A stretch of DNA of 64,000 nucleotides from Escherichia coli. Its GTDB lineage: Bacteria; Pseudomonadota; Gammaproteobacteria; Enterobacterales; Enterobacteriaceae. How positions within the stretch are numbered: the first letter of the stretch is position 1; each line of letters begins with the position of its first letter. This document shows, piece by piece, positions 1 to 6,000 of the stretch. Where the stretch lies: the NCBI RefSeq assembly GCF_041886205.1, contig NZ_CP169029.1; one strand, given 5' to 3'. The position numbers were made by a program.

Positions 1-3000
1 AGTACCAGCGCCGTCTTACCACTCCCCGCAGAGCCGACAATCACCAGCGGTAGCGGGTGTTCGTACAGCGCCTGCTGCTCATCATCAAAGGACAACATTT
101 TATCCAGACGATGGAAACGCCCGTGAGACGGATTAATGTACGTCAGCGTTTCCGTCGCTATATCAACAGGCTCTGGTACAGGTTGTTGTTGTAAGCGGTC
201 TTCATCAATCACCACGTTTTTGCGAAGAAAACGTGAAGTGTGATAGGCATGATTGCGAATATATTCCAGTACAAGGCAGACTGTTTCCCCCTAGTAGCGA
301 TACAGCGAAAACAGTAACCGGGACCGGATACTGAGCCGGGCGCGATAAAGATTGGTGTCAATTTTACGAACATCAGCCTGAACGAAGTTATCGGCCTCAA
401 TGGCCTGTGCAAATTTTTTATAGCCCGGGATCGCTTCCGGGTTCAGGGTATGGTAGAGACAGATTTTCATGGCTGTCAGTTCCTGTCGTGCAAAAAACGT
501 ACTGATTCTACGAAGGAACGGCCCACGCAACAACCTTGTCCCCTTCCTGAATTGAATTCACGGTCAAAAAACGCACGCTGTTCAGTTATCGACACCGATA
601 ACACAACCCCTGATTGTTGTGGATATAACCGGTAATATCAAAGATATCGCGGCTGTTTTTAAGGCAACGTATTGCTCTGGTGTATCACCCCGGGTAACCT
701 GAAAACACCTTTCCACCCGGCATTATCCGCCCGGACTTATCACCCGCCAGGTCTGCTGCAGTAAATCCCCCCGTTGTGAACATGCTTCATCAACTGTGAC
801 ACTGGCTCGCGGGTGACAAATACTCGTCTGGCTGAGCAGCAACAGGCATCGAATTGTTGCTCCTCCATGCTGTTCCCGCAACCAGCGTAACACCACCGGC
901 GATGATGGACTGGTCGTGTGATTACGCTCAGTAATACGTTCATGCACCTGTCGATAAAAGGAAGTACAGAATGCATGAATCTGTTGCCCATTGATGTTTC
1001 CTTCTGCCGAATGGAGCGTGAAATGAAATGCCAGCAGACGCGGCCAGTGGTCCACCGCCTGCTGAACAAAACGCCGGATTTCCCCCGGCTCTGAAAGTAA
1101 GGCTTCGGTTATTTGCACTATTTTATCCTTGTGAATTTTGTTAAGCCGGTGCAGACACACGGAAAGCGAACATCAACACCGGCACGGTACAATACAAACA
1201 CCAGCGACTGGCGGGACGAAGGGAATGACGAATCAGTCAGGAAATGATGACAACCAGTTGGCTGACCAGAGGAGTTAGCAGAAAGATGAGCGGGAGTGTC
1301 GCCAGCATCGGGGACAGGGCTGATTTCCGCAATACCAGCGCCGGCATTGCAACACGTTTCATGCTGCTGCTCCTCGTGATTCCTCAATTCGTTGTTGCAT
1401 CCACTGCTCCACTTCACTTTTGTACCAGCGGCTGCTGCGCCCCAGTTTGATGGGTTTAGGAAAATGCCCTTCACTGATCAGCCTGTAAAACCATTTATCG
1501 GTCATGCCGGTGAAACTGGTGATGTAGTTCATGTCGATCAGGGGATCGTCGGCACGCAGCAATACGCTGTCGTGGCTTGTTGTGGTCAACATGGTCAGAA
1601 TGTCCTCAGTGAGATTTATTAAGAATGGGGTAATACGGGGAATGGGATGGCGTGCTGCTTTCAGCACTGCCAACCGGGATTGCCGACAAGGCAACGGGCT
1701 TCCGGATCGCACACTCCACGGCGATCGCGGGCGAAATCACTGAACGCCCAGATAAGGTCCTTAAACAGGGCTTCGCAGTCCGGTGACCGGCGATCCAGTA
1801 CCACATCCCGTGTTATCTGTTTCTGGTACGGTGCCGCTTCACCCGGTGACGCGAAGCCCAGTACGTTGCTCCAGGCATCCAGAATCAACCTGTCCAGTTC
1901 AGGGCCGTCGAAATACTCCTGTCTGACGCACAGCACCACGTGGTATTCCGGCTTTTCCGGATGACGGGTCAGGAGCCAGCAGAGATCACGTCCGGGGGTT
2001 GCATTCATCAGCGCACTGACGGTTTCGATAAAATCCATGCCTAACCAGGTATTTCTGTCACTGAAGATGTTGTCATGTTCCCCCGGCAGGCGAAGCAGGA
2101 TCCGCCGTACCCGGGAGCAGGACTGTTCACGCAGCGCACGGTTGAGAACACCGATGATTTTGTTCTGATAAGACGGCCAGAAGGGCGCCATGCTATAGTC
2201 GAAATAAGGAATACCATTCATAAGATATGTTCCGTTATGCGCAGCCCACAACGCGTCCTGCCCGTGGATACGCTGACGTGTTATGGCTTGCGGAATGAGA
2301 TTGATAGAATAAGTGAAGAACCGAAGCAGAACGGGAAGATCAGGTAACCGACAAGGGACAGAACACCGGATGCAGGTTCAGGGTGAATGATCTCCGTTGA
2401 CTTCAGTTCACATCATTAAGCAAGGCGGTAAGGTTTTACCGACGGAGTGTTTCCAGGAGAGGAAGCAGATAAAAATACCGTTGCATGACTTCAGGACGAC
2501 TTTTTCAGAAAACGAGCTAAGGGCGTCAACCACGCCCTTACCGTGGCATACGCTCATGCACCGGATGCCGTTTTACAGGATTTACCTGCCATCCAGTAGA
2601 CGCCCTGGCCCACGACTGCAACCATAATTACGTTGCCCGGAACCGTCATGCAGCTTCGTTTCATATTTCACTAGATAACTGGCTCTGTTCCGGGCTTTCT
2701 GCAGCGCTTCCACATCACCACGCTTGATCCAGAGAACAGCGGCTTCACCCGGCTTTTTGTCTGAAGCCTTCCTGGTTTCAGAACATCCACCCGACAAAGG
2801 CGTATCATCGGAAGAAGGGCGAGCATCAGATGATGCCGGTTTACGGAAAGGCGTCCGCCTGGAAAAATGAACCAGTCCATTACCCTGCCAAGGTTCAAGA
2901 TGCAGAGCGCTACACCATGCCAGCTTGATCAGTGTCGCCAGCGAAGAAGGAACAGTGAAATCCCCTGGCGAGCACCAGGTATCTTTGTTGAGCAGTAATA

Positions 3001-6000
3001 TCACGTGATAATGTTTCCTGCCTTTTTCCTTGCCAAACTCCCGACACCAGAAATAATGCAGGGTGGTTGCACGCACACGCTTGTTGGCACATCTTTTTTT
3101 CCGCTGGTAAGCCTGAATTTTGGCTTTCAGGGATGCAAAAAAACGAGAAATCACCGCTGAATCCGGATCGGGATCCATGATGGTGACAGGCATATACTCA
3201 GGGAAACGTAAATCCACCCGGATTAACGAGACGGCACGGTGCTGCGCCAGAGCACTGTCGAGAAGGCTGTCAAAACGGGATAACCAGTAAGCATTGTGTA
3301 TTGGTTGATTCATGATGAGAGATCTCCGTTGATTTGGATTGACTTCACATCATTAATCACCGCAGTAAAACTTTACGGCATCCTGTCATTAAGCAATGCT
3401 ACAACTCTCTGATTAAGAGAGATTGAAACGGAATAAACCATCCCGTAACGAAAAGAGAATCCTGCACGTAAGGTAAAAACACGCAGCAACAGCATGAATG
3501 GATTTGAAAACAATATGGATGACGAAAAAAGTCAAAAGGGAAACGGATCAACAGAACGTGCAAACAAAACATCAAAAACGCAATCAGAACGCTTTCTGGC
3601 GCTGTGAATCAACAACAACACCAAAACCTACAGCTTAACCACACAACTCAATCACAGAGCCGAATAGCGCGCTTAAAACCTGTTTACAGATAACCCCACC
3701 CCAAGAACAAAAACCACTAACATCAGAATCGATTTTCTTATCCAGAAAATGTTACGTTTCACTACACACCATAAAAACGATTAACCATCGATAACGTAAA
3801 CCTTATCTGAATCAAAACACCAAAACCGTTCATCACACTTTCGCAATGCAAGAAGAAACCTCATGACAAAAAGAATGACCTTACACGGAAAAGAAAAACG
3901 TCAGGAATCGTTAATGCCTCAATCTGATTGTTATCAAAAAATTCAGAAAGTCGTTTAACAGAATCGTCGTAAGCACATCGAAAAGAACGTCAGATTACTT
4001 CAGGAAAGCTCGGGTTGATTTAGCGTAAAGATACTTTTCTCATGCTAACGTCGAAACTCGAAATCTCAGGAAAGGTTAAACGTAACATCAGTAAAATCGA
4101 ATAGCAGATTGATTGCTGAAGCAGAAAGGTTTTACAGCAGCATTAAACTGATTTAGTTAACGTAAAGATTTACTAAACTGGATGTGTATATAGTATCATA
4201 CCGACATTCTCAACATCTTCAGACTTCCATACATACTGGGTGTTAATTTTTCACTTTTACAGCCAGCATGGAGTTTTCTGTCCTAAAAACAGAGCAGATT
4301 TACTCTGGAATTATTTTCTCTACCTCAGAAAACTTGCTCTCAATAATCTGCTATGGCTTCGTAGTTTCTGTTGTTCTTTTCATAAAAGTTATAAGTCATT
4401 GTCATAATCATACGATAATCACTTTATGTTAGTTTTTACTGTCATACGCTACTGACTTTTCAGTCATTGCCAGAAAGGGGGGCTTTTTACTTCCATTTCA
4501 CCACTCAACAAATGCAAAACTTGTCCAGTAAAGCGGACCACCTCTTGCTCACAAGCAACGAATCGTCTCCAGGAACAGCCCTCAAATATTGCAGAAACAA
4601 AAACAACAAAACCCTCATTATCACTGATGTTCGGAAATTTCCCTGAACAAAAAAAACGAAAACAAAATGAGACGCATTATCATTAATGTAGTCAAAAAGA
4701 CGTTATTGTGGCTTTCAGTTAAATGGTACTATTTCTCATAAATCCACTTAACTTTTTTTACTGATTCATCCCAGAGAACCACTTTATCAGTAAAAAATGA
4801 ATTATATAGATTGACGAGTTTTTCTGTTTCAGTTATTCCCAATGTATTATGTATAAGTTGTAGATATGCTTTTATCCAGATTTCTTTACCCTCCTTCCAC
4901 TTATCTATAAAACTTTCCAGCTTACTTAATCGTTGATTTATAAAAAACGAATCAATATCATGAAAAAGCTCAACAAGAAAACAGCACGAGACAATCTCAA
5001 CAAAAAACAAATTCTCCTTAAAAGCATTATAAAACTTTATCAACACATAACGAAAAACACCTCCTGTTAACCTTTCCTGTTCATAAAACAACAAGCCAAA
5101 AATAGGCGGAAATCTTTTAACCACACCACTTTTAATCCAGTAAGGATGATGATTAGTCTTTACTGGCAGTGAATAAAAGAACAATTCGGTTTCTCTTTTC
5201 CCACCACAAACAGACAAAACAGTCTTATAAAGACTTTTTGAATCACTATATCCTGACACTCCAGACGAATTAGCAGGGTATTTTCTTTTTACTTTTTGCC
5301 TTAATGGAGCTGGAAGGATAATAAAACGGGATGGTAGATAACAATCGCTTTCAGAAGACCTGCATTCGCACACATGAAGATTTATATTTACATCCGGACA
5401 ATTCAAAAACCACACAGAATAATTATCGCCCCGTTTGCAATATGAAACCCATGAATAAATTGCATAAAGTTCAGAAAGTACATCTAACTCTGCTTTTGAT
5501 TTAAATGTGATACCGTTTCTTCGAATTCTCGTTTCCAGCGTTCTCCATGCCGGAGTTTTCAGTATCTCACGAACTTTTTTATTAAGTTCAGCCAGCGATG
5601 GTCCCTGCTCCTGTTTATGTTTCTTCCTGCTGTTAATGATTTCTCTTTCTTTTACTAATTTTTTCTTACTTTTGGGTCCTTTTATCTTTCTTGGCAATGC
5701 TTCATTTAATCTGTGAACAGGATTTTGCTCTCTTCTTTTTTTGAGCTCACAAAACCTCTCATAATGTTTTCTGCACAGTCTTTTCTCCACTGCCATTTTT
5801 ACTGAGAAAACCTGATTGTTACAATTTTTTCTGACACATTTGTTTTTACGTCCGGTCATCCTCTCATCTCCTGAAACCGCAGTATGTCATTAGTTCCCGT
5901 TCGGAAAAACTCACTTCATACTCCATTACACTTTAACGATCATGTCCGTAATTCAGACATTCCATCATTTTTCACGTCCATATTACATGAATGATAAACC

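Follow-up and report, generated by a model that had tools for sequence, protein, structure and literature searches.

Closest described systems

The cluster of genes considered here lies on the minus strand at positions 582-3378 of a 64,000-nucleotide (nt) stretch of Escherichia coli DNA (contig NZ_CP169029.1 of assembly GCF_041886205.1), the whole of which is called the window below. It comprises an inovirus Gp2-like gene of the YagK/YfjJ family, an alpA-family regulatory gene, two further open reading frames (ORF2 and ORF3) and two copies of a repeat that includes a palindrome. Two proteins of the same family (PF11726), YfjJ and YagK, are encoded in the CP4-57 and CP4-6 islands of E. coli K-12, respectively, and match it with E-values of 1e-64 to 1e-68, as compared with 2.7e-34 for the window protein. 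The islands are of the same kind, and AlpA-type helix-turn-helix (HTH) genes are found nearby (alpA in CP4-57 and ykgV in CP4-6). However, yfjJ and yagK are single copies encoding 208 amino acids (aa), have different neighbours (yfjI, and yagL/yagM, respectively), lack a 35-residue low-confidence insert of the window protein (approximately residues 156-190), and carry neither the motif nor the palindrome of the window upstream. No functional study of any YagK/YfjJ protein was found in the literature searched.

A second comparison is provided by the filamentous (Ff) inoviruses, where gpII, an HUH-type rolling-circle initiator, is modulated by a non-catalytic relative, gpX, which is an in-frame C-terminal product of gene II and not a separate diverged paralog. 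The 243-aa protein of the window is linked to G2P by its family name and by a match to PF23343 (REP_ORF2-G2P), and ORF2 and ORF3 might play the part of the non-catalytic partner, but the island of the window contains no filamentous-phage structural genes.

In the parts of the work of Fillol-Salom et al. (2018, PMC6092414) considered here, AlpA of the E. coli phage-inducible chromosomal island (PICI) EcCICFT073 is described as activating its own promoter and triggering excision and replication of the island. An AlpA-family activator in an integrative island is thus common to both systems, and the same regulatory logic is proposed below for the palindrome upstream of the alpA unit. As presented there, PICIs of this type carry a Pri-Rep primase/helicase instead of an HUH protein, together with packaging genes, and no operator is described in these parts; the island of the window, in contrast, is of the CP4 type, with genes of a GTPase, antirestriction protein, RadC and a CbtA-family toxin. 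In Pseudomonas, the islands I23, I44 and I55, integrated at the tmRNA gene, bear a gene for an 'inovirus Gp2-like protein' adjoining alpA at one end, along with RadC and an HTH protein, and the authors proposed these as core functions of the element (bioRxiv 10.1101/2024.08.29.610337). These islands belong to another genus, contain one Gp2-like gene, are mobilised by a jumbo phage, and no degenerate paralogs or shared operator have been described for them.

The protein families PF11726 and PF27752 are therefore already known, as is the Gp2-like/AlpA pair as an island core in Pseudomonas. To the extent of the literature searched, two points appear to be new: the presence of two palindromic sites, one of them at a fixed position, and the assignment, from sequence profiles, of the ORF2 family and, explicitly, of the UCP030791 family to the HUH superfamily as putative catalytically dead paralogs.

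Organisation of the module and its predicted enzyme

The reading favoured here, with slightly more than even confidence, is that positions 582-3378 form an AlpA-linked island module containing an HUH endonuclease gene, two catalytically dead paralogs and a shared palindromic operator that couples the nuclease gene to the alpA operon, with AlpA as a candidate binder. Its main features are as follows:

2582-3313, minus strand: Gp2-like/YagK-YfjJ family gene, 243 aa, with H101-Y102-H103 and Y213-x-x-K216
3309-3378, minus strand: repeat copy A in the Gp2 leader, with the palindrome at 3363-3378, box TTAATGATGTGAA at 3344-3356, block TCAACGGAGATC at 3321-3332 and the ATG at 3311-3313
2377-2441, minus strand: repeat copy B upstream of ORF2-alpA, with palindrome CGGTAAAACCTTACCG at 2426-2441, the box at 2407-2419 and the block at 2389-2400
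1661-2221, minus strand: ORF2, 186 aa, 'hypothetical protein' in RefSeq, with E-Y-H instead of HUH and Asp at the position of the catalytic Tyr
1359-1592, minus strand: alpA-family gene, 77 aa, excisionase-type HTH transcriptional regulator
582-1118, minus strand: ORF3, pseudogene of the UCP030791 (PF27752) family with an internal stop according to RefSeq; T-I-R replaces H-Y-H, premature TAA at 723-725

The 243-aa protein matches PF11726 (YagK_YfjJ_C) along profile positions 2-170 of 170 (119 bits against a cutoff of 25.8, E=2.7e-34) and PF23343 with an E-value of 4.2e-9. The H101-Y102-H103 motif and the Y213/K216 pair are invariant among 65 diverse homologs. An AlphaFold2 model (predicted local distance difference test score, pLDDT, 82.3) has a central antiparallel sheet with flanking helices, like solved HUH nucleases, in which the HUH motif is located on strand E100-109 and the Y213/K216 motif is assigned to helix 201-214. 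Judging from sequence and model, the protein is apparently a catalytic HUH endonuclease. A sequence search of the PDB with the Gp2 profile gave no match. Within the low-complexity insert of the coding sequence (CDS), at 2823-2890 on the minus strand, lies a sub-threshold match to the Rfam family PhotoRC-I (24.3 bits against a gathering score of 45, E=0.0058); it was the only Rfam match and was dismissed as almost certainly due to chance.

The alpA product matches Phage_AlpA (PF05930) with 41.5 bits against a cutoff of 21 (E=1.2e-10), as well as the PHROG 'excisionase and transcriptional regulator' (8.5e-10), in agreement with the preliminary description of this DNA, which had placed alpA at 1359-1592 between the second and third reading frames. 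The gene neighbourhoods of 80 loci from various genera were surveyed (loci are labelled L001 etc.), and in many of them alpA adjoins Gp2-family genes.

ORF2 and ORF3 as degenerate paralogs

All three reading frames had been described as minus-strand genes with YfjJ/YagK sequence blocks, at 2582-3313, 1661-2251 and 723-1160. Reading frames do exist at these places and superfamily homology is detected by profile methods, but for ORF2 and ORF3 it is invisible to BLASTP, Pfam and NCBIfam. Two boundaries also require correction: the start of ORF2 is most likely the ATG at 2221, not the TTG at 2251 (RefSeq), and the frame at 723-1160 is merely the N-terminal part of the pseudogene 582-1118.

ORF2 gave no Pfam or NCBIfam match in a direct scan. 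The family is narrow and nearly confined to E. coli, and an exhaustive search with a hidden Markov model (HMM) retrieved only two distant full-length relatives. When the ORF2 profile included both of them, hhalign against the Gp2/YagK profile returned a probability of 98.6% (E=6.5e-16, 166 columns). One of these two relatives, the bridging homolog P0319, matches PF11726 above threshold (41.8 bits, 1.4e-10), and the HMM of the ORF2 family matches bona fide Gp2 proteins from dozens of species down to 1e-18; the deep Gp2 HMM scored 19.8 bits for ORF2 of the window and 22.5 bits for an intact UCP030791 protein. By these profile comparisons ORF2 is a divergent relative within the YagK/YfjJ superfamily, not a member by the threshold of Pfam itself. 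Its HUH column reads E-Y-H (C/F-Y-H in distant members), and an Asp is invariant at the Tyr column. The AlphaFold2 model of ORF2, built on a 10-sequence alignment, reached a pLDDT of 39 and was unusable.

ORF3 is a nonsense-mutated member of UCP030791 (PF27752), to which the present analysis adds a probable kinship with YagK/YfjJ and the lack of HUH and Tyr. The TAA at 723-725 corresponds to Gln in intact homologs (166-187 aa). The family has 333 homologs, PF27752 was found on 120 of 120 among the matches listed, and the position of the gene after alpA is conserved. E. coli proteins of this family gave no Pfam (YagK/YfjJ) or NCBIfam match in direct scans, and shallow profiles gave weak hhalign results; after divergent members from L007 and L009 were added, the Gp2 profile aligned to the ORF3 family with a probability of 95.9% (E=5.8e-9, 146 columns), so the frame at 723-1160 does align with the family. 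The member from L009 matches PF11726 with 22.9 bits (E=9.3e-5), below the 25.8 cutoff, and the UCP030791 HMM matches bona fide Gp2 proteins from dozens of species down to 1e-10. Some sources name members of the family 'inovirus Gp2 family protein'; otherwise it is a separate family in the databases. T-I-R occupies the HUH position, and there is no alignable Tyr segment, while the structural tryptophans W89 and W133 are retained in both the ORF2 and the ORF3 families.

Since ORF2 and ORF3 lack the HUH histidines and the catalytic Tyr, the module would encode one probable enzyme and two pseudo-enzymes, of which ORF3 is also a pseudogene here; both are probable, predicted catalytically dead paralogs of the Gp2-like protein. 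This gives annotators a basis for renaming the ORF2 family. Pairwise BLASTP among the three reading frames revealed no significant similarity, and identity in the hhalign alignments is only 15-18%, which indicates that the triplication is old. In the distant loci L007 and L009 AlpA is located upstream of the Gp2/ORF2-like/UCP030791 trio: the order in L009 is AlpA, YagK_YfjJ (208 aa), ORF2-like (195 aa) and UCP030791 (157 aa), and that of L007/L008 is similar. Other arrangements include the first two paralogs after AlpA (L019), Gp2 followed by alpA and, further on, UCP030791 (L014-L018), two Gp2-like genes (L026/L027), and Gp2 with alpA only in Proteus, Providencia, Yersinia, Pectobacterium and others.

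The repeat shared by the Gp2 gene and the ORF2-alpA unit

A bipartite motif, GATCTCCGTTGA-N6/11-TTCACATCATTAA, had been noted upstream of the two longer paralogs, and it lies exactly there, at 2389-2419 and 3321-3356, and nowhere else in the 64 kb (0 matches expected, 100 shuffles); each half is exact at these two sites only. Both sites are real, but the repeat is longer than first described, about 65 nt, and includes a 16-bp palindrome that had been overlooked. Positions 2377-2441 and 3309-3378 are 74% identical with one 5-nt indel and exact 12- and 13-mers, and their alignment score of 43 exceeds that of every shuffled target (at most 35). The number of copies is exactly two: no region upstream of alpA, ORF3 or a neighbouring 376-aa gene, or in the 1.4-kb spacer, scored above shuffles. 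The region of the ORF2 ribosome-binding site was also considered as a relative of copy A, and the similarity was not significant versus shuffles.

On the coding strand, copy A consists of the palindrome, 8 nt, TTAATGATGTGAA, 11 nt, TCAACGGAGATC, 7 nt and the ATG, so that the second block contains the Shine-Dalgarno (SD) sequence (GGAG) of the Gp2 gene. In copy B the same box and block are separated by 6 nt, and the position of the ATG is occupied by CTG (TTA in the L002 lineage), which is not a start codon; no coding frame follows copy B, as the frames there are not conserved and have no canonical start. A terminator-like hairpin lies about 80 nt before copy B, and ORF2 begins 150-230 nt after it. 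The palindrome is perfect in copy B (CGGTAA-AACC-TTACCG) and reads CCGTAAAGTTTTAC(C/T)G in copy A.

Every locus of the E. coli module that has ORF2 carries both copies, and copy A alone is found where the island is truncated after Gp2 (L090-L092). Among five diverged lineages of copy B the palindrome arms, the box and the SD-like block are invariant: every substitution falls in a spacer or in the centre of the palindrome, and directly 3' of the copy the leader can no longer be aligned. Strain 536 is among those in which the ORF2-alpA unit follows another Gp2 allele, of 188 aa (HAH at the HUH position, YLAK). Copy B is still associated with ORF2 in these strains; the allele itself lacks the box and SD blocks and has a palindrome of its own, CTGTAAGTTATTACCG, about 95 nt upstream of its ATG. 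The claim that both upstream regions share a cis element is thus borne out, with signs of selection.

The accompanying proposal of a duplication of gene plus regulatory site does not hold: the paralogs are 15-18% identical and the trio is also found in the distant lineages L007-L009 and L019, as against 74% identity between the copies of the DNA repeat. With a gene duplication this ancient, the repeat is not a relic of it, and later copying of the leader, or else selection, must account for the extension specific to E. coli (box and SD block).

Several minor observations concern the same sequences. GATC, the site of Dam methylation, is present in both TCAACGGAGATC blocks (2389-2392 and 3321-3324), that of copy A within the near-palindrome AGAGATCTCC. 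A metagenome-assembled Enterobacteriaceae contig (L010) contains the 243-aa Gp2 gene, 3.3 kb of sequence, the CTGTAAGTTATTACCG palindrome (7344-7359), copy B and ORF2, and may have had both Gp2 alleles in tandem, although no intact second Gp2 ORF was found there by HMM. The 8-mer TGACTTCA was considered as an iteron and rejected as only marginal, with three local copies, and resemblances to CsrA and IHF sites seen by eye were discarded because they are not conserved between lineages.

The palindrome in other genera

The two blocks of the bipartite motif do not extend to the family as a whole: both are absent upstream of K-12 yfjJ and yagK, and some 70 more distant Gp2 loci lack them as well, an outcome that the preliminary description had named as refuting, here for a family-wide motif. 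The element that does persist between genera is the neighbouring palindrome, with the core GTAA-N4-TTAC and a variable 4-nt centre. Among 87 loci, the pattern GTA[AT]-N4-[AT]TAC was found 19 times around Gp2 starts versus 2.6 expected (P=4e-11) and 17 times within 250 nt after Gp2 stops versus 2.2 expected (P=2e-10). Its position relative to the Gp2 ATG is -57 to -63 in six genera (-63 for copy A and -57 in the five others). In Hafnia, Siccibacter, Superficieibacter, Rosenbergiella and relatives, whose Gp2 proteins are about 40% identical, the sequence upstream of Gp2 is GTAyTTTTTTAC-N8-GTAAT(G/T)G(T/A)T(A/G)TGAAC, recognisable as the palindrome plus a diverged box, and the same loci have a second GGTAATTTTTTAC between Gp2 and alpA. 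In Hafnia alvei GTAAATCATTAC is identical at both sites, and a one-base variant is located upstream in Pectobacterium. Where ORF2 is absent, the second copy of the palindrome lies directly upstream of alpA. The repeat therefore has dyad symmetry, conserved arms around a free spacer, a fixed position and recurrence before ORF2 or alpA, all of them features of operators.

Within the window, the 16-bp palindrome at up to two mismatches occurs 13 times versus 2 expected; of the additional sites, those at 8604 and 9333 are inside CDSs annotated in L001, and the others lie beyond the annotated stretch. The stricter core pattern occurs six times in the 64 kb, which is the background level.

Some loci have other elements. 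No shared element was found in the Proteus and Providencia loci (L020-L041); there the interval from the Gp2 stop to the alpA start contains repeated GATATCCC units, including the inverted pair GGGATATC...GATATCCC, in place of GTAA-N4-TTAC, and these may be a lineage-specific operator candidate. In K-12 CP4-6 a core palindrome, GTAATTTATTAC, is located at the 3' end of the AlpA-like ykgV (L006 10911-10922), about 110 nt upstream of yagM in the cluster yagN-ykgV-yagM-yagL-yagK, and the same 12-mer occurs in Cedecea (L065). K-12 yfjJ (L005 7470-7500) and yagK (L006 9125-9150) share an upstream sequence of their own, TTGATAGGTAATATATAGGTACAT versus TTGGATAGGTATTATATAATGGCAT, which is promoter-like.

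Proposed regulation

It is proposed that the palindrome CGGTAA-N4-TTACCG, followed in E. coli by TTAATGATGTGAA and TCAACGGAGATC, may serve as an operator for a dimeric DNA-binding protein encoded by the module, and that the nuclease gene and the ORF2-alpA operon would thereby share a single switch. AlpA would be the leading candidate for the binder, because the second site always precedes the alpA-containing unit and because AlpA auto-activates in a related island (PMC6092414); the nuclease-family proteins are the obvious alternative candidates. The dead paralogs might be partners of the nuclease that bind DNA without cutting it or that have a regulatory role, by analogy with gpX and gpII. Operator function, the identity of the binder and the role of the dead paralogs are the steps that the model adds to the comparative data. 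It would turn an anonymous gene cluster into a concrete switch-plus-nuclease model of island induction or replication, with relevance to the Gp2-like/AlpA pairs found at island ends in many Gammaproteobacteria.

A number of points weigh against the operator model. A scan for sigma-70-like promoters within and beside both copies of the repeat found none. Because of their relatedness, the E. coli loci do not count as independent in the enrichment test, and by subtraction about 14 and 13 occurrences are left without them, versus about 2 expected in each case. The distance from the second palindrome to the next start varies from -23 to -110 before alpA in other genera to about -210 before ORF2 in the window. 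Morganellaceae loci have no palindrome and carry a different inverted repeat upstream of alpA, and the palindrome is also absent upstream of yfjJ and yagK of K-12; the two-site design is therefore frequent, not universal, in the family. The TCAACGGAGATC block is conserved in copy B though it serves no ORF there, which a simple operator leaves unexplained. As to the paralogs, the fold of ORF2 is assigned from profiles only because its structure model was poor (pLDDT 39).

A bolder extension, to which only a slight probability can be given, is that the CP4-type 'cryptic prophage' islands of E. coli and their relatives across the Gammaproteobacteria are not inert. AlpA bound at the paired palindromes would switch on the HUH initiator, which might act as a hetero-oligomer with its dead paralogs and nick at or beside the palindromes, leading to rolling-circle replication or single-stranded DNA of the excised island. 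If true, islands of a very common class, whose cargo includes toxin-antitoxin, antirestriction and defence genes, would have a mode of replication and mobilisation that has gone unrecognised.

Alternative explanations

Among the alternatives, the one that survives best, though still unlikely, is that the 65-nt similarity specific to E. coli has no function and is the trace of a fairly recent copying or gene conversion of the Gp2 leader to a place before ORF2 (or the reverse), followed by drift only. It is consistent with the occurrence of the box and SD blocks in the E. coli-type module only, with a recombination junction just beside copy B (approximately 2461-2484), and with the negative outcome of searches of the repeat for promoters, Rfam families and significant RNA structure. 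It does not fit the pattern of variation, which affects the spacers and spares the three blocks in lineages between which the adjacent leader cannot be aligned. Rosenbergiella (GTAATTGATGTGAAC) and Hafnia (GTAATGGTTATGAAC) also have diverged versions of the box after the palindrome, and the palindrome part is clearly under constraint across genera.

It is distinctly unlikely that the two copies are origin and terminus recognition and nick sites of the Gp2-like HUH endonuclease, bracketing a unit of about 935 nt or marking a rolling-circle origin of the excised island, with the palindrome as an extruded hairpin and the adjacent blocks as the nick region. The closest analogy is RstA of CTX-phi, which produces single-stranded DNA between tandem origins; to our knowledge, the repeat does not resemble known nick sites. 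An HUH gene flanked by direct repeats, each with a palindrome, would suit such a function, and so would the conservation of the palindrome beside Gp2 genes across genera and the retention of TCAACGGAGATC in copy B, where it has no coding or ribosome-binding role. The genome data speak against it: precise deletion of the unit was found in 0 of 5,426 E. coli genomes (0 records covering at least 80% of the junction query), and there is no true tandem junction in these genomes, the apparent hits being two pieces of the normal arrangement, about 950 bp in span, that had been joined up. Moreover, copy A overlaps the ribosome-binding site and start codon, the alternative Gp2 allele retains the palindrome only, and the second copy in other genera tracks the start of alpA, not a fixed unit size.

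A leader for translational control at the RNA level, in which the TTAATGATGTGA box would base-pair with the sequence around the start codon (or with an RNA acting in trans) and occlude initiation, is very unlikely. In its favour, the box of copy A is the inverted complement of TCTCATCATGAATCA, which belongs to the start-codon region, with 13 of 15 positions pairing across an interval of 24 nt, and the minimum-free-energy fold forms this stem. However, the z-scores of the fold are only -0.5 to -1.1, copy B has an invariant box without a start codon or an equivalent stem, copy A is too invariant for a covariation test, and there is no relevant Rfam match.

Transcription units and minor reading frames

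Three further features lie between the main elements:

2518-2540, minus strand: terminator-like hairpin, 9-bp stem with tail GCTCGTTTTC, 42 nt after the Gp2 stop, kept in related loci
2222-2376, minus strand: variable leader from copy B to the ORF2 start, with no conserved ORF, essentially unalignable between island lineages
1237-1362, minus strand: hydrophobic ORF of 41 aa, with a 4-nt overlap with the alpA stop (MKRVAMPALVLRKSALSPMLATLPLIFLLTPLVSQLVVIIS), gene status uncertain

The hairpin separates the Gp2 gene from the ORF2-alpA unit, and the module would have at least two transcription units, the second possibly continuing into ORF3. The 41-aa ORF has no family match; a CDS of 126 or 159 nt is annotated at its site in several RefSeq genomes (L001, L093-L095, L097).

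Island setting and distribution

The window begins with an E. coli CP4-type island, of which 4.3 kb match strain GXU-23-25-310 at 99.7% identity. Of the 5,426 complete E. coli genomes searched, 3,006 match at least part of the island region at the window start, approximately 1,900 hold the copy-B region, and approximately 1,060 hold at least 80% of positions 2200-3560, that is, the Gp2 gene with both copies of the repeat; at least part of the module is found in about one third. The proposed control module is widespread among E. coli genomic islands.

The RefSeq order on the minus strand is inovirus Gp2 family protein, hypothetical protein, HTH regulator, 41-aa ORF, pseudogene and DEAD/DEAH helicase pseudogene. 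On the other flank of the Gp2 gene, an ORF-free stretch of 1.4 kb is followed by the 376-aa gene and, beyond it on the opposite strand, by genes of a GTPase (yeeP-like), WYL-HTH, DUF932, antirestriction, RadC, YeeU-type antitoxin and CbtA-family toxin proteins. The divergent orientation relative to the yeeP-like module is identical in every related locus showing that gene. The tandem triplication and this orientation had been called unusual; in view of these counts, and of the same orientation wherever the GTPase gene is in view, they are common.

The gene after ORF3 (1-470, minus strand, extending upstream in L001) is the DEAD/DEAH-box helicase pseudogene with an internal stop; in other strains this slot is occupied by a 970-aa ankyrin-repeat protein (L002), and in L001 a CdiA/CdiB contact-dependent inhibition locus is found a few kb beyond the pseudogene. 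The spacer between the Gp2 and 376-aa genes (3381-4728, 1.35 kb without ORFs) has a strong strand skew, with A 37% and G 16% on the plus strand, an AT skew of up to +0.47 and a GC skew down to -0.41. It is kept at 77-95% in the related islands L090 and L091. The 188-aa Gp2 allele (L094) is preceded by an A-rich spacer of equal length, but the two sequences are unrelated. The spacer of the window holds one further core palindrome, GTAAAGATTTAC, at 4162-4173 and a local repeat, TTAGCGTAAAGAT/TTAACGTAAAGAT, at 4015-4032/4152-4169.

Two homology breakpoints, at approximately 2461-2484 and at 2375-2377, are recurrent. Many E. coli islands keep Gp2 and the terminator and have everything past approximately 2461-2484 replaced by genes of a restriction endonuclease, acyltransferase or AAA ATPase; others keep copy B and ORF2 up to approximately 2466 with a different Gp2 allele, and in the L002 lineage divergence sets in precisely where copy B ends on its 3' side. 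The borders of the repeat thus look like recombination joints between exchangeable sub-modules.

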